IMG/VR virus record: IMGVR_UViG_3300025701_000006
Span: 14,328-78,327 of that record
DNA length: 64,000 nt
Reading direction: 5' to 3' (one strand)
Source of the DNA: a virus
Shown: piece after piece, positions 1,259-14,700 of the stretch
How the letters are laid out: each line of letters starts with the position of its first letter
How positions within the stretch are numbered: the stretch's first letter is position 1
The notes under the pieces: model-generated
The model's database searches: none
Told to the model about the DNA's origin: nothing
The model's input: the letters and a program-made list of their open reading frames with translations, nothing else
Made by a program: the position numbers and the translations under genes

Positions 1259-2407
1259 ATGGCTAAGATAAGTGACAGCGCAATGGTTAAGCTGTGTAAC
1301 AAGTTCTCTTTAGATGTATCTAAAATAGCAGAACAGATAAAGAAAGATTATCCAGGTTACATAGTAAGACCTAACCGCATCGCCAAAAGAATCAACTCGC
1401 TGCGTACCAAAGGTAAGCTACCGTTAGATTCTGGAAACTACGTAAGTAGTGGCGAAGTCCTTAAAGGATCATCTACATTATACGACGATGAAGGCAATGT
1501 TAAACTTCAGTGGGTAAAAACAGATATAGATAAACAAACTGCGATAGATAATATCAAAGAATGGATAGATACGTGTGTTGAAAACCTGCCTAAGTTTAAA
1601 AAGAAAAACTACGAAGTGTCTAACACATCTAGTGACTTACTTGCTATTTATCCTCTTGGCGACCCTCATGTAGGGATGAAAGCGTATAAAGATGAAGCTG
1701 GTGACAATTGGGATTTAAACACCGCACAAGAAGTATTTTGTGGGGTGTTTGACAGGCTTGTAAAGACAGCTCCTCATTGCAAAGAGGCAATCATTGTTAA
1801 TCTAGGTGACTACTTTCATAGAGATAACGTAGCTGGCGTAACAGAGCGCAGTGGACATAAACTGGACTCTGACGGCAACTACCTCATGATGGTAGACACT
1901 GGCATAAAGATTATGATTCAAATGATTAATTCCGCACTTGAGCATCACGAAGTGGTCAAAGTAATTACTATTATAGGTAATCACGATGATACTGGAGCTA
2001 TGTTCTTGCAAGCAGCGTTAAAACATATGTATGCAAACGAACCACGAGTAAATATTGAGTGTACTGCTTCAGTATTCCAGTATTTCCAACATGGTAAGTG
2101 CTTCTTTGGAGTACATCATGGACACACTTGTAAAGCAGACAAGCTACCACTAGTTATGGCAACAGATAGACCAAAAGAGTGGGGAAATTCCTCATTCCGT
2201 TACTGGCTAACTGGGCATATCCATCATGACAGCAAAAAAGAATACTCTGGATGTTCCGTGGAATCATTCAGGACTCTCGCAGCTAAAGATGCTTATGCAT
2301 ATAACGGTGGCTATAGAGCTGGACAAGACAGTAAAGCCTTGGTAATACACAAAGAGTTTGGTGAAATTGAAAGACACACTATCAATATAGCCCAAGTACT
2401 ACCATAA
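1259..2407 (+). CDS. Calcineurin-like metallophosphoesterase
   Basis: Complete motif set GDPH, GDYFH, GNHD, HHGH, GHIHH. Confidence 0.85.
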   Translation: MAKISDSAMVKLCNKFSLDVSKIAEQIKKDYPGYIVRPNRIAKRINSLRTKGKLPLDSGNYVSSGEVLKGSSTLYDDEGNVKLQWVKTDIDKQTAIDNIKEWIDTCVENLPKFKKKNYEVSNTSSDLLAIYPLGDPHVGMKAYKDEAGDNWDLNTAQEVFCGVFDRLVKTAPHCKEAIIVNLGDYFHRDNVAGVTERSGHKLDSDGNYLMMVDTGIKIMIQMINSALEHHEVVKVITIIGNHDDTGAMFLQAALKHMYANEPRVNIECTASVFQYFQHGKCFFGVHHGHTCKADKLPLVMATDRPKEWGNSSFRYWLTGHIHHDSKKEYSGCSVESFRTLAAKDAYAYNGGYRAGQDSKALVIHKEFGEIERHTINIAQVLP

Positions 2408-2425
2408 GTTTTAACTTCCCTGTGT

Positions 2426-2449
2426 AAAGCCCTCTTATGAGGGCTTTTT
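2426..2449 (+). terminator. Intrinsic terminator
   Basis: AAAGCCCTC-TTAT-GAGGGCTTTTT after the phosphoesterase stop. Confidence 0.8.
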
Positions 2450-2458
2450 ACATTATAC

Positions 2459-2485
2459 TAATAATAATAATAATAATAATAATAA
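2459..2485. repeat. (TAA)9 microsatellite
   Basis: Nine perfect TAA units between the terminator and the helicase start. Confidence 0.9.
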
Positions 2486-2500
2486 ATCGGAACTTCTTAA

Positions 2501-3934
2501 ATGAACCTAACTGAAGAACAACAAAACGTAGTAAATTACATTGAAAACATCACAGAGCCAGAACTAGTGCTTATAGACTCTGTTGCAGGCAGCGGCAAGA
2601 CTACGTTACTTACAGCTATAGCAAAAGAAGCCCCATTACCAAACAGCCTGTACCTTGCTTACAATAAAGCTATTGCAACTAGTTCCAAGAAAAAATTTCC
2701 TTCATACGTAGATTGTCGTACTACACATTCTCTTGCGTATGGAAAAGTAGTGCACCCTAAAGACTTAAATGTAGGTTTTTTTGGTCCTAAAATGGTTAAA
2801 GAAAAAATGCCATTCTCTAATAAAGTAATGTTAGCAGAAGACATTAGAGAATTTTGCTTATCTTCTTATCTTACTTACGAAGAATATGCAGAAGCAAACA
2901 ACAGAGTAAACACTGCAATGGCTAAGCGCTATCTAGGGCTAATGGGCAGTGGAGCAATTGAATGTACTCATGACTTCTATCTAAAAGAGTTTCATAAAGA
3001 CCTTGCAAGTGGTAGCATCAAACTAAAACCTTATGGTGTAGTTATGCTAGACGAAGCAGGAGATCTAAACGAAGTCACACTAGAAATATTTAAACTACTA
3101 CCTGCAAGTATTAAAATTGCAGTTGGTGACCCTTACCAAAACATATACTCTTTTAACTACACTATTAACTGTTTTGATAGGTTAAAAGACCAAGGTACTA
3201 CCTTCAAACTGTCTAAGTCTTTTCGTGTGCCAACACACATTGCTTCGGCAGTACAAAACTTCTGTCAAAACTACTTAAATCCTGACATGGAGTTTGAAGG
3301 TATCGAAAGCGACAAGACGGATATTAAAACTAGGGGTTATATCTCTAGGACAAATGCTGGTCTGATCAATAAGATTATAGAACTTAATGATGACAATACC
3401 CCTTATGGGCTAGTAAGAAAAGCTAATATCATATTTAATACGCCTCTTATGGTATCGTCCCTTAAATACCAAGGCAAAGTTACAGACACTGCCTATCTAC
3501 ATCTGCAAGAAGATGTTAATGACTGGTTTGAAAACAAAGATGGTATTAAAACTAGTAATCCAAACATGTTAAACTATTTGCGTAAAAAGTATGATGAAGA
3601 TATCCAGTTAGTGCAGGCTATTAATTTAGTGATTAAGCACGGAAAAAATGGTATTTTTAATGCGTACTACAAAGCTAAAAACCATGAAAACAAAAAACAT
3701 GCTTTTACGCTACTTACAGCACATTCTTCTAAAGGTCTAGAATTTGACGAAGTAACTTTTGCTCCTGATATGAATACTTCAGTAGAAAAAATTATAGAAG
3801 ATATAACAAGAGGACAGATTACAGGTGACAGTGATATTTCTGATCTAACCGTACAAGAAAGAGAATCTTTAAACCTTTACTACGTAGCGGCTACAAGAGC
3901 TCTAGTGAGGCTTAATAACGCAGCTTATTTATAG
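2501..3934 (+). CDS. Superfamily 1 (UvrD/Rep-like) DNA helicase
   Basis: AGSGKTT, DEAGD, GDPYQNIY, LSKSFR, TAHSSKGLEFD, LYYVAATRA. Confidence 0.92.
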   Translation: MNLTEEQQNVVNYIENITEPELVLIDSVAGSGKTTLLTAIAKEAPLPNSLYLAYNKAIATSSKKKFPSYVDCRTTHSLAYGKVVHPKDLNVGFFGPKMVKEKMPFSNKVMLAEDIREFCLSSYLTYEEYAEANNRVNTAMAKRYLGLMGSGAIECTHDFYLKEFHKDLASGSIKLKPYGVVMLDEAGDLNEVTLEIFKLLPASIKIAVGDPYQNIYSFNYTINCFDRLKDQGTTFKLSKSFRVPTHIASAVQNFCQNYLNPDMEFEGIESDKTDIKTRGYISRTNAGLINKIIELNDDNTPYGLVRKANIIFNTPLMVSSLKYQGKVTDTAYLHLQEDVNDWFENKDGIKTSNPNMLNYLRKKYDEDIQLVQAINLVIKHGKNGIFNAYYKAKNHENKKHAFTLLTAHSSKGLEFDEVTFAPDMNTSVEKIIEDITRGQITGDSDISDLTVQERESLNLYYVAATRALVRLNNAAYL

Positions 3935-3944
3935 GTAATTACCA

Positions 3945-4619
3945 ATGGAAACAATAGAGCCTATCCAAGTATCTTATAAACATACTAATGATGCTAAAAC
4001 CGCTAAGGCCTGGCTAGATAGTCTACCAGATCTTTTTGCTGCTGACTTTGAAGCAGCTATTAGGTATACTAAAAAAGATATAGAAGAAGCTAAAGCTATT
4101 GTTGAAGATGAAAGCATACCTAAAATAGAAAGAATAGAAGCTAGTTCAATAGCAACTGCTACAGCATTAGGTCATCCTTACCACTGTACCATTACACATT
4201 GCAGTATTGCGTACACGGAAAAAGACGCTTATGTCTTTATTATCGATGCACAACCTATAGCAGATGTTGTTCTTAACTTTCTAACATCTACTGTAAGAAC
4301 GCAAGTATGGCATAATTACAGCTATGATGGCAGGCTAATAAGGTATTACGCAGACAAAGACGCTATTAATGTTGAAGATAGCCAAATATTTGCAAAAACT
4401 CTAATAAACCATGTAGATACTTTTAAAGCTAAAACAAGACTAAAAGATTTAATGGGGGAGTTCTACGGAGACTGGGCAATATCTGCTGATAACTTTACAT
4501 TAGAACAGCAATATGAAGAACATGTACTGCATTATGCAGCTATAGACGCATGCGCAACGTTTAAACTATGGGAATACCTAAATGATTTCGCAAAAGAAAA
4601 CAAAATACAGTCCGCATGA
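3945..4619 (+). CDS. Stand-alone 3'-5' exonuclease domain of family A DNA polymerase
   Basis: ExoI ADFEA, ExoII HNYSYD, ExoIII YAAID; directly precedes the polymerase domain gene. Confidence 0.85.
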   Translation: METIEPIQVSYKHTNDAKTAKAWLDSLPDLFAADFEAAIRYTKKDIEEAKAIVEDESIPKIERIEASSIATATALGHPYHCTITHCSIAYTEKDAYVFIIDAQPIADVVLNFLTSTVRTQVWHNYSYDGRLIRYYADKDAINVEDSQIFAKTLINHVDTFKAKTRLKDLMGEFYGDWAISADNFTLEQQYEEHVLHYAAIDACATFKLWEYLNDFAKENKIQSA

Positions 4620-6417
4620 CCAGTTACCGGCACCAGAACCTAAAACAATAGAGTATGACGTAGATCACTTCTACAAAAACACTGCTAGATACCTAGTTAA
4701 AGACACTGTGCGGGTTATGGACAACGGTTTAGCCATTGACTTGAACAAAGTTATTGAGCTAGAAGAAGTACTCGTAGAACAGCTTACAGAGGTAGATAAA
4801 GAACTAGCGTCTAATAAGTATATCGAACAGTATTTAAACCAACGCTATGCTACGCAAATAAAAGAGTATAAAAAAGACCGTAAATCTAAAATGCGTAATG
4901 CAGACTACTATTTAAAGGAATTTAAACCTTTTGATATGATGCATAGAAGTTACTTTATGGAAGAGTACGCAAGTGCTAAAGGCTGGAGTAAGCCCGAAGA
5001 AAAGCTTCCTACTGGTGTTAGTAAATGGCCTGCAAACCTTGTTAAAAAGTATGCAGCTACTAATAGGCTATTAAAATCTTTACTAGATAAGACTATACCA
5101 CTAAATACACCAGCAGCTGTTAAAGCTATGGAAAAACTAGCCAAAGACAAAGCTGATATGTACAATCAAAAGTACTTGGATCAGGTAAAGTCTCCTGATG
5201 TAAAATATCCAGTATTTAATCCGGCTTCTTCTACACAAAAACAAGAATTGTTTAAGATGCTAGGCTTTGTGTCACAAAAAGTTTCTAAAAAAACAGGTTT
5301 ACCTTCCTGGGACAGAGACGAAATAGAAAATATTAATAAATCTACTAGAGATGAGGATATAAAATCTTTTACTCAAAGTTTTATAGACCATTCTTTTGCT
5401 GCGATAGTAAAAAACAACTTTATTGCTGCTTTTTACAAATACACAGTACAAGGCAGATTATACGGCCAGTACAAACTTTTAGGTGCTAAAACAGGACGTT
5501 ACACAAGCAGTAACCCTAACATGTTAAACATGCCTTCAACTAAATCTAGGTTTGCTAAACCTGTTAAAAAATGTTTTGTAGCACCAGAAGGTAAAATCAT
5601 ACTAGCTGCAGATTACAGTGCTTTGGAAGACAGAGTAATTGCATCTTTATCTAGGGATGTTAACAAATGTGATATATTCTTAAAGAATCTTGATGGTCAT
5701 TCACTAAATGCACTAGGCTATTTTCTGCCAAGAATTGAAAACCTTATGGATATCACAGGAGATACACCTACTGACGCTATTAATTTTAAAAAACTAGTGG
5801 ACAGTGGTGATTCCGTAGCAGATGCAATTAGACAAGAATCTAAAGGTCCTACCTTTGGCTTGGCGTATGGTGCTTACCCACCTAAAATTGCTGCTACTCT
5901 AAAAATATCTTTAGAAGAAGCACAAGAAATCTTTGATAATTATCACAATGTACTGTATCCTGGTATAACAGATTATAGACAAAACTACGTACTACCTACC
6001 GCAAAAACACAAGGTCAATTACATCTAGGATTAGGGTTTACCCTAAAAACAGACGACCCTGAAAAAGATATACGTACGCTAGCTAACGCTACATGCCAGT
6101 TTTGGTCTATACTCACAGCATTAGTAATAAATAAAATGCATGTACTTATCGATCAGATAGGATACCAAGAAGACGTAAAAGTAATATCAACTATATATGA
6201 TTCAATATATTTTGAAGTTACAAACGACCCTAAAATAATTAAATGGGTTAACGATAATCTCATAGCTACTATGCTAGTAGATTTTATGGAAGATCAGACA
6301 GTTGTAAATGAAGCAGAAAGCGACATAGGTTTTAACTGGGCAGAAATGCTTACTATACCTAATAATGCTACTGTTGAATGTATTGAAGACACTTTAAAGA
6401 AACTACAAGAATTGTAG
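4582..6417 (+). CDS. polA: Family A DNA polymerase, polymerase domain
   Basis: FNPASS, TGRYTSSNPNMLN, motif A ADYSALEDR, motif B RQESKGPTFGLAYG (Phe at the E. coli 762-equivalent), motif C IYDSIYFE. Confidence 0.93.
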   Translation: MISQKKTKYSPHDQLPAPEPKTIEYDVDHFYKNTARYLVKDTVRVMDNGLAIDLNKVIELEEVLVEQLTEVDKELASNKYIEQYLNQRYATQIKEYKKDRKSKMRNADYYLKEFKPFDMMHRSYFMEEYASAKGWSKPEEKLPTGVSKWPANLVKKYAATNRLLKSLLDKTIPLNTPAAVKAMEKLAKDKADMYNQKYLDQVKSPDVKYPVFNPASSTQKQELFKMLGFVSQKVSKKTGLPSWDRDEIENINKSTRDEDIKSFTQSFIDHSFAAIVKNNFIAAFYKYTVQGRLYGQYKLLGAKTGRYTSSNPNMLNMPSTKSRFAKPVKKCFVAPEGKIILAADYSALEDRVIASLSRDVNKCDIFLKNLDGHSLNALGYFLPRIENLMDITGDTPTDAINFKKLVDSGDSVADAIRQESKGPTFGLAYGAYPPKIAATLKISLEEAQEIFDNYHNVLYPGITDYRQNYVLPTAKTQGQLHLGLGFTLKTDDPEKDIRTLANATCQFWSILTALVINKMHVLIDQIGYQEDVKVISTIYDSIYFEVTNDPKIIKWVNDNLIATMLVDFMEDQTVVNEAESDIGFNWAEMLTIPNNATVECIEDTLKKLQEL

Positions 6418-6430
6418 AATTTATTCTAAA

Positions 6431-6631
6431 GAGCAGGGTGCCTTCCTACCTTTTTAGCCTTTCCGGTGGGGTGTGCTCGCTAATCACCGGACTTAATTTA
6501 CCTGGTGGTAACTTAGCAAGGGGGGAGACCTCCTATTAGCCTTACTAATGGGGTGCTAGATAAACATTAGACGAGCAAGGTTCATAATACCTATTCCGCC
6601 TTCCCAGTGGGGTGCTCAATAATCACTGGGA
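6431..6631 (+). ncRNA. Three tandem ~60-nt putative structured RNA units (6431-6491, 6514-6570, 6573-6631)
   Basis: GC-rich intergenic repeats with conserved AGCA..GG/CCT..GCCTT..GGGTGCT..TAA and covarying stems; G-U pairs and a GAGA tetraloop favour the + strand. Confidence 0.7.
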
Positions 6632-6650
6632 CTAATTTAGGAGCTATACC

Positions 6651-7061
6651 ATTAAAATAGAATTACCAATTTACTGGACACAAGAGTTCAAGACTAAAAA
6701 CGACAAAACCGTTTTAGTAGGTATGAACTGGTACCGTAATGCGTTTTACCACGCACAAAACAAAATGAAAAAAGACTTCCAAGAACTAGTATATAAACAG
6801 CTAGGTGACGAAGTTATTAGTGATCAATTTACCTTAGATATAGGTATATATTACAAAAACGCTTCTTGCGATGGTGCTAACATAGCAGCACTAATAGAAA
6901 AATTTACCCTAGATGCGCTTCAAGAGAACAAAACTGTGGTTAACGACAACGTTAAATACCATGTAGGTAGTTCCTGGAAAATATTAGGGCAAGATAAAAA
7001 TAATCCGAGATGCGAAATCTCGATAACAAAAAAATTAACAGAGGAGACTTTAAGTGCTTGA
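6651..7061 (+). CDS. RusA-like Holliday junction resolvase / endonuclease (probable ATT start)
   Basis: DGAN...DALQ..VVNDN and DKNNPRCEI resemble RusA acidic motifs. Frame extends upstream of ATG 6723 to ATT 6651, 7 nt after AGGAG. Confidence 0.7.
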   Translation: MKIELPIYWTQEFKTKNDKTVLVGMNWYRNAFYHAQNKMKKDFQELVYKQLGDEVISDQFTLDIGIYYKNASCDGANIAALIEKFTLDALQENKTVVNDNVKYHVGSSWKILGQDKNNPRCEISITKKLTEETLSA

Positions 7062-8781
7062 TTTTGCAAAAGAGCTACTTAAGAAACATTATTGTAAGCC
7101 CAATGAATCTATTCATGAAGCTTTTAAACGAGCTAGTGACTGCTACGCTACTGACCAAGAGCAAAGTGAACGAATACAAGACTATCTTAAGAAAGAATGG
7201 TTTATGTTTAGTTCGCCTATTCTAAGTAACGCACCAGCAAAAGGTGAAAAAACTAAAGGCTTGCCTATTAGTTGTTTTTTAACCTATGTACCAGACTCTA
7301 TCAAAGGTCTATGCGATCATACTACTGAAGAACGATACTTATCGGTCAAAGGTGGTGGCGTAGGCGGACACTGGTCTGATGTAAGATCTATCTCTGATAA
7401 GACCCCAGGCGTTAATGGCTTTTTGCATACCGTCGATGCAGATATGGTGGCCTATCGTCAAGGTAAAACTCGTAGAGGCAGCTATGCTGCATACTTGGAT
7501 GTTAGTCATCCAGAGATCATCGAGTTTATTAAAATGCGTACTCCTACTGGAGATCTTAACCGTAAGAACCTAAACCTTCATCACGGTGTAAATATTACTG
7601 ACGCTTTTCTTGAAGCAGTCAATGATGATTTAGAATGGTCTCTAATAGATACACATAATGGGGAAGTAGTAGAAACTGTACGTGCTCGTCATATATGGGA
7701 AGAGATTTTAACAACTCGATTCCGTACTGGCGAACCATACATTAACTACCTAGACGAAGCAAATCGCAAAATGCACCCAGCGTTACAGAACCTAGGTCTT
7801 AAGATCCACGGCAGTAACCTGTGTAACGAAATCCATTTACCAACAAACAAAGATCGTTCAGCAGTATGCTGTTTATCATCTGTCAACCTAGCTAAGTTTG
7901 ACGAATGGAAAGACAATCCTGTGTTTATTGGTGACCTTATCGAATTGTTAGACAATGTTTTACAGTTCTTTATTGACCATGCTCCAGACGCTTTAGAAAA
8001 AACACGATACTCCGCTATCCGTGAACGTTCTTTAGGCCTAGGTGCTATGGGTTTCCATGACTATTTAATGCAGCACTCTATTCCTTTTGAAAGTAGTTTA
8101 GCAATATCTATTAACAAAAAGATGTTTAGCAGTATTAAAAAGCAAGCAATAGCGAAGACTAAGGAACTAGCTGTGCTACGTGGCGAAGCTCCAGACGCTG
8201 TAGGTTACGGTGTACGAAACACTCATTTATTAGCTATTGCCCCCAACGCAAATAGCTCAATTATCTTAGGTGTTAGCCCATCTATCGAACCAAGAGCATC
8301 TAACTGCTACACCCACAAAACACGAGTTGGCAGCTTCTTAGTCAAAAACCCTTCACTAATCGCTGTACTAGATACATATAATCGAAATACAGAAGATACG
8401 TGGAAATCTATCATGAAAAGTGATGGCTCTGTACAGCACTTAGACTTTTTATCTGCAGAAGAAAAAGACGTATTTAAAACTGCGTTCGAGATTGACCAAA
8501 ACTGGGTAGTCGAAATGGCTCGTAGCCGTCAAGAATACCTATGCCAAGGACAATCTGTTAATATCTTTTTCCCTGCCGGTGCTACTAAAGGCTATGTAAA
8601 TGCTGTGCACAGACGTGCTTTTAGACCTGCTGATGATGTAGGTGAACCACTGAAAGGTGTGTATTACTTACGTACAGAAGCAAGTAAAAAGACTGAAAAG
8701 ATTAACGTTAAAGTAGAGCGTAATGCTCTTAAAGATGGCGTACAAGGCTCTTTAGACGCCTGTATCGCATGTGAGGGATAA
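7054..8781 (+). CDS. nrdA: Class I ribonucleotide reductase alpha subunit (no ATP cone)
   Basis: ISCF, GGGVG, SNLCNEI, VCCLSS, APNANSS, GVYYLR, C-terminal CIAC. Confidence 0.96.
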   Translation: MLDFAKELLKKHYCKPNESIHEAFKRASDCYATDQEQSERIQDYLKKEWFMFSSPILSNAPAKGEKTKGLPISCFLTYVPDSIKGLCDHTTEERYLSVKGGGVGGHWSDVRSISDKTPGVNGFLHTVDADMVAYRQGKTRRGSYAAYLDVSHPEIIEFIKMRTPTGDLNRKNLNLHHGVNITDAFLEAVNDDLEWSLIDTHNGEVVETVRARHIWEEILTTRFRTGEPYINYLDEANRKMHPALQNLGLKIHGSNLCNEIHLPTNKDRSAVCCLSSVNLAKFDEWKDNPVFIGDLIELLDNVLQFFIDHAPDALEKTRYSAIRERSLGLGAMGFHDYLMQHSIPFESSLAISINKKMFSSIKKQAIAKTKELAVLRGEAPDAVGYGVRNTHLLAIAPNANSSIILGVSPSIEPRASNCYTHKTRVGSFLVKNPSLIAVLDTYNRNTEDTWKSIMKSDGSVQHLDFLSAEEKDVFKTAFEIDQNWVVEMARSRQEYLCQGQSVNIFFPAGATKGYVNAVHRRAFRPADDVGEPLKGVYYLRTEASKKTEKINVKVERNALKDGVQGSLDACIACEG

Positions 8782-8785
8782 GATT

Positions 8786-9715
8786 ATGTTACAAGAATTA
8801 AGCAGAACGTATAAGCCATTACGATATCCACAAGCTGAAGAGTATCGCCTTCAGTCTGAAGACATCCATTGGGTTGTAAAAGAAGTCGAAATGAGTAAAG
8901 ATTTAGAAGATTATAAATCTGCTTCCCCAGAGGAAAAAGAATTTATTAAAAACATTTTATCTATCTTTACACAATCAGACTTTAATGTTGCCGCAAACTA
9001 TTTGCCTTTAATCAATAAGATTAAAAACAATGAAGTACGTGGCATGCTGACTAGTTTTATGGCGCGTGAGTTTATCCACCAAGAAGGTTACGCACACCTT
9101 AACGAATCTTTAGGTTTTCCAGATAGTTACTACTCTGATTTTTTAAAACATCAAGAAACCTTAGAAAAAGACTCTTACATGGCAACTACCACGTTTGAAA
9201 GCTTCGGCTTAAAACTGGCTAAAGGTATTCTGCTTGAAGGTGTTAGCCTCTTTGGTGCTTTTGTATTACTTAAGAACTATGAGCGAGTAGGAAAGTACCT
9301 AGGTACCTGTACAATTAATGAGTGGTCTTTACGTGATGAATCTCTTCACGTTGAAGGCAACGCATGGCTGTTTCGTACCTGGTGCCAAGAAAACCCGAAA
9401 GAAGTGAATGACTCTTTTAAAAAGCACATTTACACGATGGCTCGTGAAATTGTAGAACTTGAAAAAAAGTTTATTGACTTTGCATACGGTGACTATCAAC
9501 CTCCTAAGTTAGACAAAGAAGATGTAAAAAAGTATATCGAGTTTATAACCGATAGACGTTTATTACAACTAGGCCTTAAGCCGAATTTTGGTTGTTCTAC
9601 TAATCCACTACCCTGGATGGATGAATTAAACAACGGAAGTTCGCATGCCAACTTCTTCGAAAAACGTGTAACTGATTACGCAGTTGCAGGGATGGAAGGT
9701 GATTTTACTTACTAA
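8786..9715 (+). CDS. nrdB: Class I ribonucleotide reductase beta subunit
   Basis: Metal ligands FTQSD, EFIH..GY (radical Tyr), LEG, DESLH; C-terminal NFFEKRVTDY. Confidence 0.95.
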   Translation: MLQELSRTYKPLRYPQAEEYRLQSEDIHWVVKEVEMSKDLEDYKSASPEEKEFIKNILSIFTQSDFNVAANYLPLINKIKNNEVRGMLTSFMAREFIHQEGYAHLNESLGFPDSYYSDFLKHQETLEKDSYMATTTFESFGLKLAKGILLEGVSLFGAFVLLKNYERVGKYLGTCTINEWSLRDESLHVEGNAWLFRTWCQENPKEVNDSFKKHIYTMAREIVELEKKFIDFAYGDYQPPKLDKEDVKKYIEFITDRRLLQLGLKPNFGCSTNPLPWMDELNNGSSHANFFEKRVTDYAVAGMEGDFTY

Positions 9716-9732
9716 AGTAAACCACAACAGGT

Positions 9733-9760
9733 AAAGAAGGGGGCATTAGCCTCCTTTTTT
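9733..9760 (+). terminator. Intrinsic terminator after nrdB
   Basis: AAGAAGGGGGC-ATTA-GCCTCCTTTTTT. Confidence 0.75.
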
Positions 9761-9783: not shown

Positions 9784-10065
9784 ATGACTAACAAATTCCA
9801 TACAAGAGCTAATTTAAGTCAAGCGTTGTACAGTATTATACAACAACACTATACAAGTATGGCTGCTCAAGAACAGATCATACCAAACACACTACCAGGC
9901 TTTGTATCAGAGGCTACACATCTTATGTGCTATGAACTAGCTGGTATAATAAACGATAACCTCTATGACATTAATAGATGGGAAAATATAAAAACATACT
10001 GTGACGAAGTATTAACAGTAATTAACGAAGCAACCAAACAATCAACAAAAACAAAGGAAGAATAA
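9784..10065 (+). CDS. Hypothetical helical protein
   Basis: 93 aa ORF with GGAG RBS; no secure motif. Confidence 0.6.
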   Translation: MTNKFHTRANLSQALYSIIQQHYTSMAAQEQIIPNTLPGFVSEATHLMCYELAGIINDNLYDINRWENIKTYCDEVLTVINEATKQSTKTKEE

Positions 10066-11730: not shown

Positions 11731-14700
11731 GTTTATAAGTGGGGGCATAGCTACAGTTGTTATTATATCAACAGGTGTGTATATTGGTGTTAATCCAAAC
11801 ACACCGTACTCATCCCCCGCTTTAATTAGCAAAGATTGATCTTGAATCATTTCTAGATCTAACCCAATACCTGCTCCGGCTAGCGTTATGGCAGTCCTGA
11901 CGGCATGCTGACTACCTGCCTGAGTAATTACATGCTGTATACGTTTTACGTATTTAGTAAACATCAACACACCAATCCTATTTAAATACTCCTCGCCTCT
12001 GCTGTTAGGTAAGTTATAATTAACAAAAGAGTTTAAAAGTTGCGTGTGTCTGCTTGTTTTAGCTGTAGCCAAAAATTGCTCTCTTTCTGCTTTACCTAGT
12101 ACCCTTCTTCTATCTGCTTTACCCATCCTATTTATCTGCTTTCTATATGCTAAAGGCAGGTCTCTTTTCCCATCCGCTTGTTGTTCTTCAATTATTTTTT
12201 GCTTTCTATTCATTACATCTCTAGCAATTAAATCAGACATTTGTAACACTTCTTGATTTACTTTATACCATGCAGTCTCTTTACTTAAGTAAAGCCACTG
12301 TAAAGGAGTTTTAATTAAAGAAGGCACCTTACCTAACAACTTGTCCATTCCATCGCTAATCTTATTAGTATCACCCAGCTTATACATATTTACATCTTCT
12401 ATTACAGCTTGGTACATTCCTAAATCAAACAACTCTTTAATATCACTTTCTGACATTTCTTTTTCTATACGTTTAATTTCATTACGTAGGCGAGTAGCCT
12501 TATCGTTATAGTCACTAATTTCTTCATTATTTTTAAATCTAGTAGTGCTGTACTCTGCCACCAAAGCGTTTAGTTCTACCTTTTTAGCTTCTACTTGTTT
12601 TTGTTTTTTCATAAATTTACGAACGTCTTTAAAGCTATTAGCATAAGCTCCAACAATTTCTGTTAAACCCATTCCTGTATTTAAGGCATACAAAACATTA
12701 GAAATTATGTTTACTATTAGTATCACAGGCATCTTAAGAAGTATGTTACCTTTAGCTACCTTAACAAGATCTACAAAGTAAGCTTCAAAAATATTTATAA
12801 TACGTTTAATAGTACTAGGTAACTTGTTTACTCCATAAGCATCTGTAAATCTGGCATGCGAGTAGCCAAAATATTGGTCCATCAACATACTAGGGATAGG
12901 TAAGCTTTTATCTTCCCTGCTGTTAATAAACCTTTGAAAGGAACTAGGTAGCTGATTAAACAGTTTACGCATTTCTGGATCTGAAGATTCCGCACTTATT
13001 AGGCTATACTCCATTAAGTTATTTTTGCTGTTAGGATTATCGTAAACATCTCGTAGGTTTTGTTTAATAAGCTTTAACGCATTGTCATTTTGTTTTTCTC
13101 TAGCAACTTTGTCTATTAATGTACCTGAAGTCTTTGAAAGTACATCGACTATACTTTTATTTTGCTTTAAAAACTTATTTTTATCTTGTTTGTTCATCAT
13201 GTTTCGGTAATCTACTACATTACCTAGGGCGTCTAAAACAGGTACAGATCCTTTTGGTATATCTTTAAAAGACTTACCGTTATAAAGTTCTTCATTTATG
13301 CGTATTGCTTTAGCATTTAACTGGTTTCTATCAGCTTCAAACCACGCTTGTGCATGTTTTTTAGAATCTTGAAATTGTGCATACCTTGCTTCTCTTAGAG
13401 TCATACCACGACTACCAGGATTTCCTAGACCTACAACACCACTTTGTCTTTCAGGCCTGCTATAGGTATCACTAATGTAAAACCCTATAGGTTCTGCACC
13501 TGATATATCGTTACCATCAAACACTGATGCTAGCTTAAATCCTTGCTTTTCAAGCTCTTCTTGCTCTGATACTAAAGCGTATTTAGTCTCTATGCCATCA
13601 TCAAACAACTGCTTTATGTAGCCTTCTATCATGTGCGATGAATCATTTTTAAACAGTGCCTTTTCTGAGCCTTGTTTAAACGCTTCATATAGATTAACTA
13701 CAGTCCTTACACCAGATTCTTCATTATTAATAAGGTCTACTACTAGTTGCTTGCTAAGGCCTTTTTGTTCTTCTAAAGCACTTAAAGAAGCCATTTCTTC
13801 TATTAACGCTTCTAATTCTTTATTTGTAGGTAAAATGTCGCTAGTCAAATATCCTTTTGCTATATTTCTACTACTAGTATTTTGTGCTTCATGTCCTTCA
13901 CCCGTGACCATAAACTCGCCTAATCCTTTAGCTTGTGCTACTAGCCAATTACCTCTTTTAGGATCTAGTTTTTTTATTCTTTTCTCTAGACGGTTTATTG
14001 CTTTAACTCTATACGCATGATCACCTATTAGTTTACTTACCTGATCAGTTGAATAACCCTTACCGTAGTTTTTGTTTTTATCAAACAGACTACTGGCATT
14101 TGACTCTAATAGTATTTCTGTTAAAGCTATCTTTTGAGGGTCGTTAAGCTCCTTACTAAACGCGTTTGTTATAGCTGTAGCTACGTTACCTACATGAGTG
14201 TTTCTGTATAAATCAATGTTATTAGTTTTTAAACCTAGGAGTTCTACAGGTCCTGATATCTCTTCTGTTACTTTAGGAAGAATACTTCTAACAATTTCTC
14301 TTATAGAGTTATCTGGCTTAATACCGTAACCAGTAAAAAAAGCTCCTGCAGCATCTCGGTAGTAGTTGTTGTATATAGCCTTAGCAAAAAACTTACTAAA
14401 GAAAAGAACCTTCTGTATATGGTTCATATTTTGCGGTATTTCTACTTTATTTTCTGTATCAAATACTTTTGATGCTGCACCATCTAGGAACTCTTCAATT
14501 CTGCCGTCTGTACGGTCTATTAAATCGCTTACTTGTGTAAGTAAGTTAGGATTGTCAGTCAGTTCTTTATCTGCAGTATTGTTTATTTCCGCTAACTTAA
14601 ACGCTAAAGTATGTACTTCTTTTCTAAGGCTTTCGTTTTTGTTTTTAAAAGTATAGTTACCCATAACTGCATTTATTACGTCTGAAAAGAATGTTTTAAT

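Follow-up and report, generated by a model that had tools for sequence, protein, structure and literature searches.

A tandem pseudoknotted RNA motif between the DNA polymerase and RusA genes of AD45-like marine phages

The DNA analyzed here (the window) is a 64,000-nt stretch, positions 14,328 to 78,327 of IMG/VR virus record IMGVR_UViG_3300025701_000006, that forms part of a 78-kb viral contig and has the Alteromonas podoviruses vB_AmaP_AD45-P1 to P4 (100-104 kb) as its closest cultured relatives. Between its DNA polymerase gene (polA) and a RusA-like Holliday junction resolvase gene (rusA) lies a + strand array of three units of ~60 nt, U1 to U3, which an original prediction had picked out and which the sequence bears out. 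Comparison with homologous units allows us to conclude with high confidence that the motif is a new structured RNA, specific to one clade and carried on the coding strand.

Results

A three-way junction closed by a pseudoknot

Each unit forms a three-way junction of helices P1, P2 and P3, and the P3 loop pairs with the 3′ tail to create an H-type pseudoknot (Table 1). Read from the 5′ end, the first half consists of the P1 5′ strand, the P2 hairpin, the joining segment J2/3, CCU, a single U or A (L1) and the first pseudoknot strand, and the second half of GGG, the P1 3′ strand, RNUAAW, the pseudoknot 3′ strand and an AU-rich tail (CYUAWUUU). The 5-bp P1 helix occurs as GAGCA/UGCUC, UAGCA/UGCUA, UGGCA/UGCCA, GGGCA/UGCCC, GGGCG/UGCCC and GAGUA/UACUC. 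P2 begins directly after P1, spans 3-8 bp and covaries, with versions that include AGGU/ACCU, AGGC/GCCU, AGGUG/CACCU, AGGGUA/UACCCU and GGGU/ACCC. Pyrimidines make up 80% of the P2 loops and G 4%, and UCC is present in 16 of 21 units; the GNRA loop that the original prediction placed on this hairpin occurs in U2 only, all other P2 loops being pyrimidine-rich.

J2/3 measures 4-6 nt, is often GUUGAG and varies in both sequence and length. P3 is a 3-bp CCU/GGG helix with an invariant U·G pair, and the second unit of locus L006 carries the compensatory version CGU/GCG. The GCC(TT) and GGG stretches once proposed as invariant linkers are therefore not unpaired, since CCU and GGG are the strands of P3, whereas UAA is indeed invariant in the linker between the P1 3′ strand and the pseudoknot 3′ strand. 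The pseudoknot joins the 8-nt P3 loop to the 3′ tail by 6-7 bp and occurs in at least 10 different complementary versions. In 19 of 21 units no nucleotide separates GGG from the P1 3′ strand (J3/1 of 0 nt). The central 15-nt strand (pseudoknot strand, GGG and P1 3′ strand) finds its partners in three different segments, and the invariant UAA linker has to return along the P3/P1 groove. We infer that the pseudoknot, P3 and P1 form a quasi-continuous stack, with the invariant UAA linker probably lying in the minor groove of the conserved P3 and upper P1, which would make the unit a triplex-type H-pseudoknot with an inserted hairpin. Two other pairings were considered and rejected. An RNAalifold alternative in which ARGGN pairs with GCCUU in place of P2 and P3 is broken by a G:G mismatch in L006 unit 2, the same unit that keeps P3 by a double change, and a pairing of J2/3 (GUUGAG) with the tail (CCUAAU) was inconsistent when units were compared by eye.

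Covariation supports a + strand RNA

Homologous units were gathered from RusA- and polA-anchored IMG/VR loci, from pattern scans of viral, metagenome and genome contigs, and from the AD45-P1 record, yielding an alignment of 21 distinct units from about 18 phage contigs (3 from the window and 18 others). Across P1 (5 bp), P3 (3 bp) and the pseudoknot (7 bp), 97.1% of cells are paired and double-sided changes occur in 10 of 15 pairs, values reached by none of 500 shuffles; when partner strands are slid out of register, pairing falls to 31-55%. This covariation confirms the interleaved A-B-A′-B′ order of the predicted stems (P1 and the pseudoknot) as a true pseudoknot. Over all helices G·U pairs outnumber A·C pairs by 39 to 2, which assigns the fold to + strand RNA in the sense of the genes, again as predicted.

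The strict core pattern matches twice in the window, against 0.00 matches expected from 100 shuffles. A covariance model (R1) scored true units at 46-81 bits and chance pattern matches at no more than 21 bits, and a second model (R2), trained on the 18 non-window units only, recovered exactly U1, U2 and U3 and nothing else on both strands of the 64 kb. Plain minimum free energy folding of the whole spacer, uninformative here because it does not model pseudoknots, gave z-scores of -1.24 for the + strand and -0.38 for the - strand. The motif belongs to no Rfam family, in keeping with the first reading of it as no known class: Rfam 15 returned no match at gathering threshold over the whole 64 kb, a relaxed search (E up to 10) over 6350-6720 gave only a 14.5-bit CRISPR-DR6 chance match outside the units, a scan of the homologous locus L013 returned noise only, and ARAGORN found nothing.

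One phage clade, one locus

The 18 additional units all occupy the same locus in related phage contigs, and across the full set the P1 helix (stem A of the original prediction) covaries. Each genome carries one locus with 1-3 tandem copies, and all matches fall within the AD45-like (N4-related) clade of marine phages, with polA C-termini at least 60% identical. Wider searches (two IMG/VR pattern scans, single scans of metagenome contigs and of genome contigs, and 52 loci anchored on polA) returned true matches only from this clade and this locus, all other pattern matches scoring at most 21 bits. The motif was not found in more distant N4-like phages, whose polA precedes other genes, nor downstream of polA in more distant relatives such as Alteromonas phage PT11-V19, and a strict-pattern scan of 185,579 prokaryotic species genomes found no copy beyond one contig. 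This 26.6-kb contig (L081, CALIBI010000067.1) is filed under a Sulfolobales archaeon metagenome-assembled genome (MAG), has an AD45-like polA-unit-rusA arrangement, and almost certainly represents phage DNA that was placed in an archaeal MAG by a binning error.

The tandem units are old, divergent paralogs and not recent expansions. Within the window array, P1, P2 and all position pairs of the pseudoknot vary; the lone unit of L003 is orthologous to U1, and the second units of L004 and L006 are similar to U3. Conservation between phages can be strong, as U1 and the unit of L028 share identical pseudoknot strands and a 22-nt 3′ segment though polA is only 60% identical.

The fold persists in five gene neighborhoods

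In the window, the polA stop codon (TAG, 6415-6417) lies 13 nt 5′ of U1, and the 233-nt polA-rusA spacer, by far the widest gap in the gene string, holds all three units. The unit of every relative lies on the coding strand past a stop codon, usually by 0-50 nt, and at nine loci 17-26 nt separate its end from the rusA start. Other loci have different neighbors. At L007/L021, L012/L018, L013/L016, L022, L084 and L096 a sigma70-type promoter directly follows the unit; its TATAAT is perfectly conserved, and three loci also have TTGCTT or TTGATT at a distance of 16-17 nt. The next gene, between unit and rusA, encodes a DUF5856 protein (weak Pfam match, 26 bits), so that promoter, gene and a terminator of its own form a moron. 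In four of four complete moron-bearing loci this strong, conserved terminator (7-bp GC stem and U7, with a compensatory stem change in L022) ends ~20-25 nt before rusA, leaving no room for a promoter, and rusA-nrdAB must therefore depend on read-through. AD45-P1 is the only phage with a terminator adjoining the unit; its hairpin lies 14 nt 3′ of the unit, which leaves 25 nt to rusA. In L023 unit and rusA are separated by an HNH-type endonuclease gene of the Endonuclease VII type, homing endonuclease-like in character (2331-2966), and L028 has two open reading frames (ORFs), one unknown and one of the GP88 family, between polA and unit (2100-3123).

The fold, including compensatory pseudoknot changes, is kept in all five settings, from which it follows that its function needs neither an adjoining rusA ribosome-binding site nor the polA stop codon. 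This independence speaks against both a rusA operator and a nucleotide-gene riboswitch, and in favor of a self-contained module that acts on, or is released from, a long transcript. We consider that the unit probably acts on the transcript carrying it rather than sensing nucleotides.

Two side observations concern the spacer itself. The insertions in L023 and L028 mark it as a hot spot, and some moron-bearing phages carry a second conserved structured element between the polA stop codon and the unit (Table 1). The outer stem of this second element covaries, with double changes in 10 of 13 predicted pairs among four sequences; its core reads UAAAYCUGMGAGAG..UA...AACAGUU, and it has no Rfam match.

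Gene order around the array

The gene annotated as DNA polymerase in AD45-P1 is the homolog of the window polA. The family A polymerase of the window is split over two ORFs, for the 3′-5′ exonuclease and the polymerase domain, that lie in different frames and overlap by 38 nt; AD45-P1 splits the gene likewise, and there the exonuclease ORF is listed as hypothetical. Window rusA apparently starts at AUU 6651, the codon from which homologs align, and AD45-P1 rusA has an ATG one codon upstream of that position. Start codons across the set are AUU/ATT in the window and L003, TTG in L007 and L028 and ATG in the others. Within the window rusA frame (6636-6725) no ATG, GTG or TTG precedes 6723, AUU 6651 sits 7 nt past AGGAG, and an in-frame TAA (6633-6635) shuts the frame upstream. 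Downstream of nrdB a strong intrinsic terminator, kept in AD45-P1 (L001 7325-7350), is followed by five further co-directional ORFs; the first starts at 9784, 24 nt on, without room for a promoter, and these later genes must likewise depend on read-through. Far upstream, at 498-513, the gap between two + strand ORFs contains a perfect 6-bp GC hairpin (GGGGGA-AUAG-UCCCCC) with a better U-tract on the - strand than on the + strand.

Table 1. Coordinates of the units, their helices and flanking features in the window and, where a locus is named, in related phages
Feature	Position	Strand	Evidence or detail
UvrD-type helicase	2501-3934	+	
3′-5′ exonuclease ORF	3945-4619	+	
DNA polymerase A, polymerase domain ORF (polA)	4582-6417	+	Pfam DNA_pol_A, E 1.4e-34
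Unit 1 (U1)	6431-6491	+	Sequence; model R2 E 3.8e-14
U1 P1	6431-6435/6474-6478	+	
U1 P2	6436-6440/6447-6451	+	Loop CCUUCC
U1 J2/3; P3; L1	6452-6457; 6458-6460/6469-6471; U6461	+	
U1 additional UG	6472-6473	+	
U1 pseudoknot	6462-6468/6485-6491	+	Linker GCUAAU 6479-6484
Spacer with AU-rich tail CUUAAUUUA	6492-6513	+	Tail CYUAWUUU recurs after most of 21 units
Unit 2 (U2)	6514-6571	+	Sequence; R2 E 2.2e-8; R1 47 bits
U2 P1	6514-6518/6554-6558	+	UAGCA/UGCUA
U2 P2	6519-6524/6529-6534	+	GAGA loop
U2 J2/3; P3; L1	6535-6539; 6540-6542/6551-6553; U6543	+	
U2 pseudoknot	6545-6550/6565-6570	+	6 bp; linker GAUAAA 6559-6564
Unit 3 (U3)	6573-6630	+	Sequence; R2 E 1e-11
U3 P1	6573-6577/6613-6617	+	
U3 P2	6578-6581/6589-6592	+	Loop UCAUAAU
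U3 J2/3; P3; L1	6593-6598; 6599-6601/6610-6612; U6602	+	
U3 pseudoknot	6603-6609/6624-6630	+	Linker AAUAAU 6618-6623
AU-rich tail ACUAAUUU, then Shine-Dalgarno AGGAG and 7-nt spacer	6631-6650	+	AGGAG 6639-6643
RusA-like Holliday junction resolvase gene (rusA)	6651-7061	+	PHROG 1682, E 3.8e-32
nrdA	7054-8781	+	Pfam Ribonuc_red_lgC, E 9e-100
nrdB	8771-9715	+	Pfam Ribonuc_red_sm, E 4e-61
Strong intrinsic terminator 3′ of nrdB	9734-9760	+	Terminator scan
DUF5856 moron with own promoter and terminator	L021:2171-2720; L018:2190-2700; L016:2233-2760; L022:2226-2760		
Second structured element	L013:7790-7858; L022:2096-2165; L084:3470-3533; L096:3475-3537		

Discussion

A possible antitermination site

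We tentatively propose that the unit is a cis-acting transcript-fate element of the replication-gene operon, with a processive antitermination site, by analogy to HK022 put, Bacillus EAR and lambda nut, as its most likely form. Under this proposal the folded nascent unit would bind the host RNA polymerase during elongation, by itself or together with a phage factor, and the modified enzyme would pass downstream intrinsic terminators to reach rusA-nrdAB and later genes, while polymerases starting at the moron promoter, 3′ of the unit, would stop at the moron terminator. More tandem copies would modify a larger fraction of polymerases.

The placement of terminators is what recommends this proposal. 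Every sufficiently long locus has at least one strong terminator 3′ of the unit with genes almost immediately after it and no room for a promoter. In moron-bearing loci and in AD45-P1 these genes are rusA-nrdAB; in the window and, again, in AD45-P1 they are the genes 3′ of nrdB, which begin within 24 nt of the terminator. The distance from unit to terminator is 14 nt in AD45-P1, ~0.5-0.6 kb in moron-bearing loci and 3.1 kb in the window, and the next gene follows 20-25 nt past the terminator in all three settings. On the 5′ side, no strong + strand terminator was found in ~5.9 kb of the window or ~6 kb of L008. A promoter-gene-terminator moron within an operon is the classic arrangement of antiterminated phage operons. 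The AD45 clade is reported to lack the genes for N4 RNA polymerase II (RNAPII) (PMC3821669), making host RNA polymerase the likely enzyme and intrinsic terminators relevant to it, and host RNA polymerase therefore probably transcribes these genes; our own search with PF00940 (RNA_pol) agrees in giving no match in the whole records of G000, AD45-P1 (W01) or G001, but its controls matched nothing either, and lacking a positive control it cannot show absence. RNA-library contigs from two seawater metatranscriptome runs cover 6255-6418 and 6575-6761, the latter identical to the window and bridging U3 and the rusA start. These are low-depth assembled contigs in which DNA carry-over is possible; they cannot show RNA ends, and the hole between them over U1-U2 is uninformative.

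Two RNA-only processive antiterminators are known, put and Bacillus EAR (PMC9378689, PMC8191782). The put RNA consists of two stem-loops in a V shape, ~70 nt long, that bind RNA polymerase; it includes an RNA triplex, and its action in cis extends over long distances (PMC9378689); EAR lies within or upstream of its operon (PMC8191782). Like both, the unit is a short (~60-70 nt) structured coding-strand RNA of narrow phylogenetic range within a transcription unit, 5′ of terminators that have to be passed before needed genes are reached. It differs from put in being a junction with a pseudoknot rather than two stem-loops and in its distance from a promoter, and its activity as an antiterminator is only putative.

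Several points weigh against antitermination. The unit has no sequence or structural likeness to put or EAR, neither of which was matched in the Rfam scans, it lies ~4 kb into the operon and not near the promoter, and its tandem copies have no parallel in put, EAR or nut. A strong + strand terminator also occurs ~15 kb 5′ of the unit. Phage terminators are often leaky, as in LUZ7 (PMC9163698), and antitermination may be superfluous; in addition, the AU-rich tail and the pyrimidine-rich P2 loop receive no specific explanation from it. A lambda-type nut boxA (UGCUCUUUAACA-like, single-stranded, bound by NusB/NusE) was considered as a variant. The likeness is limited to UGCUC..UAA, and we rejected it because UGCUC belongs to a helix, as the 3′ strand of P1, and changes in step with its partner (UGCUA, UGCCA, UGCCC, UACUC).

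Barrier and decoy readings

A less probable function is that of a nuclease or helicase barrier and processing punctuation mark, in which an endonuclease would first cut in the AU-rich tail, the compact, triplex-like pseudoknot would then block 3′-to-5′ exonucleases or RNase E scanning, and the polA or downstream message would be stabilized. RNase E prefers RN/WUU, and the tail CYUAWUUU resembles its sites; the unit always lies directly past a stop codon on the coding strand, and the 1-nt L1 and invariant UAA linker would suit a very stable H-type pseudoknot. Against this reading, the canonical terminator downstream in AD45-P1 and moron-bearing loci would already give a 3′ end and leave the unit redundant as a cap, simple hairpins are normally enough for such a role, and Alteromonas-type hosts are not known to have RNase J or Xrn1-like enzymes.

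The barrier reading has its closest structural precedent in the exoribonuclease-resistant RNAs (xrRNAs) of flaviviruses. Class 1a xrRNAs are ~60-70 nt long, occur as tandem diverged copies and are ordered as P1 5′ strand, P2 hairpin, P3 hairpin, P1 3′ strand, short linker and a PK2 strand of 2-7 bp (PMC8571300). The unit shares their size, their tandem copies, which would serve as back-up barriers like flavivirus xrRNA1/2, and their topology, a P1/P2/P3 junction with a PK2-type pseudoknot between the P3 loop and the 3′ tail that is here supported by covariation (PMC8571300). It has no equivalent of PK1, the xrRNA pseudoknot linking the 5′ end to the P3/P1 junction (J3/1 being 0 nt), no invariant cytosine in J2/3, a P3 of only 3 bp and no Rfam xrRNA match, and it sits between genes of a DNA phage where xrRNAs occupy a genomic 3′ untranslated region. 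That the unit is a DNA-phage counterpart of viral xrRNAs, a convergent fold that mechanically halts a bacterial RNA-degrading or translocating machine such as an exonuclease, scanning RNase E or Rho and leaves protected RNA ends inside the operon, is in our estimate unlikely.

Also improbable is a processed trans-acting small RNA, freed by cleavage in its AU-rich flanks, that binds or titrates a host or phage protein as a decoy at a dose set by copy number. Independence from neighboring genes, varying copy number, a strongly conserved core (U1 and L028) and exposed P2 loops of the composition given above would all suit such a decoy. Yet the unit has no promoter or terminator of its own, any protein partner is only putative, the tandem copies are old paralogs, and the strict-pattern scan of bacterial genomes found no homolog and thus no host RNA that the unit could mimic by descent. 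A related idea in the original prediction was an analogy to type III antitoxins. These (ToxI, CptI, TenpI) are near-identical repeats of 34-48 nt followed by an endoribonuclease toxin gene, and phage pseudo-ToxI arrays, which can lie in intergenic phage DNA, likewise consist of tandem pseudoknotted units in variable number. The likeness ends with that tandem layout: units here are ~60 nt, strongly diverged paralogs with compensatory changes, the next gene is rusA, and a PADLOC scan of 10 neighboring ORFs found no defense toxin.

Gene-specific regulation, ribozymes and DNA elements

We regard a translational operator or insulator for rusA as quite unlikely. In such a model RusA, single-stranded DNA-binding protein or another protein would nucleate on the pseudoknot and occlude the ribosome-binding site, or the fold would free that site. 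The precedent is the T4 gene 32 mRNA operator, an H-type pseudoknot 5′ of an unstructured AU-rich ribosome-binding site in a phage replication transcript. The nine loci with rusA directly after the unit match this layout, with an unstructured AU-rich stretch and Shine-Dalgarno sequence in between, and the weak rusA starts (AUU in the window and L003, UUG in L007 and L028) also speak for it. However, the fold is equally kept where rusA lies 0.5-0.7 kb off behind a promoter, gene and terminator, or behind an endonuclease gene, and internal units of an array are far from any ribosome-binding site. The T4 element also precedes the gene of its binding protein, whereas the unit adjoins rusA, an adjacency lost in many relatives, and has an extra junction and hairpin.

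Ligand-sensing riboswitch aptamers, for example nucleotide sensors for nrdAB as first proposed, are very unlikely. The compact conserved fold with invariant nucleotides near the junction and the classic aptamer-then-terminator order in AD45-P1 speak for this idea, and tandem aptamers are known in other riboswitch classes. The glutamine (glnA) riboswitch of marine cyanobacteria and phages is a ~60-nt three-stem junction with a pseudoknot that is often tandem, and thus resembles the unit in size, architecture, habitat and copy number; the unit differs in its conserved nucleotides, has no 5′ untranslated region context and gave no Rfam match to glnA or Downstream-peptide. What decides against a riboswitch is the separation of the unit from rusA-nrdAB in relatives, including six loci with a promoter between unit and next gene, and the lack of any conserved expression platform or alternative pairing. 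The pseudoknot 3′ strand never overlaps a Shine-Dalgarno sequence or terminator, J2/3 is variable, and the motif is limited to one phage clade, the strict-pattern scan of 185,579 prokaryotic species genomes being negative. The suggested competition of GAGC in the Shine-Dalgarno region for the P1 3′ strand is possible only in the window and L003 and fails in other rusA-adjacent units.

Being small, pseudoknotted, tandem and phage-borne, with a 3-bp P3, a loop of ~8 nt and then the P1 3′ strand that partly recall a hepatitis delta virus (HDV)-like fold, the unit might be a self-cleaving ribozyme that processes polycistronic RNA. We judge this highly improbable, as it has few conserved unpaired nucleotides, no HDV-type P2/P4 or G·U first pair and no Rfam ribozyme match even at E up to 10; the RNA-library contig that continues through U3 into rusA points weakly the same way, given possible DNA carry-over.

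Least credible of all is a DNA-level element, either a replication origin or a hairpin-type promoter of the N4 early or LUZ7 middle kind. N4-like phages use DNA hairpin promoters, LUZ7 middle promoters place a GC-rich hairpin ~15 bp before the start site (PMC9163698), and an AT-rich stretch follows the unit, but the 39 G·T-type against 2 A·C pairs place the fold on the + (non-template) strand only, four interlocked helices with a pseudoknot are implausible in duplex DNA, and the loops are 7-16 nt rather than 3-4 nt. The tail was also considered as an N4 RNAPII promoter, which is AT-rich from -7 to +2 (PMC4496689), and was set aside, the clade appearing to lack RNAPII and similar AT-rich words occurring elsewhere without clear pattern.

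Significance

Together, these data define a well-supported structured RNA family with four covarying helices and 21 distinct sequences from uncultured marine phages and AD45-P1 to P4. The unit is small, modular and portable, and because its fold is kept in five neighborhoods it should be easy to test and is a potential genetic part, with a cultured model at hand in Alteromonas phage AD45-P1. Were it to act as a nuclease barrier, the xrRNA principle would reach into bacteria, and a true xrRNA counterpart would be without precedent among viruses of prokaryotes. If instead it proves to be an antiterminator, RNA-based processive antitermination would gain only its third or fourth known element, and lytic N4-related phages their first; the unit would also help to explain how replication genes are run on host polymerase in a clade that lost N4 RNAPII.

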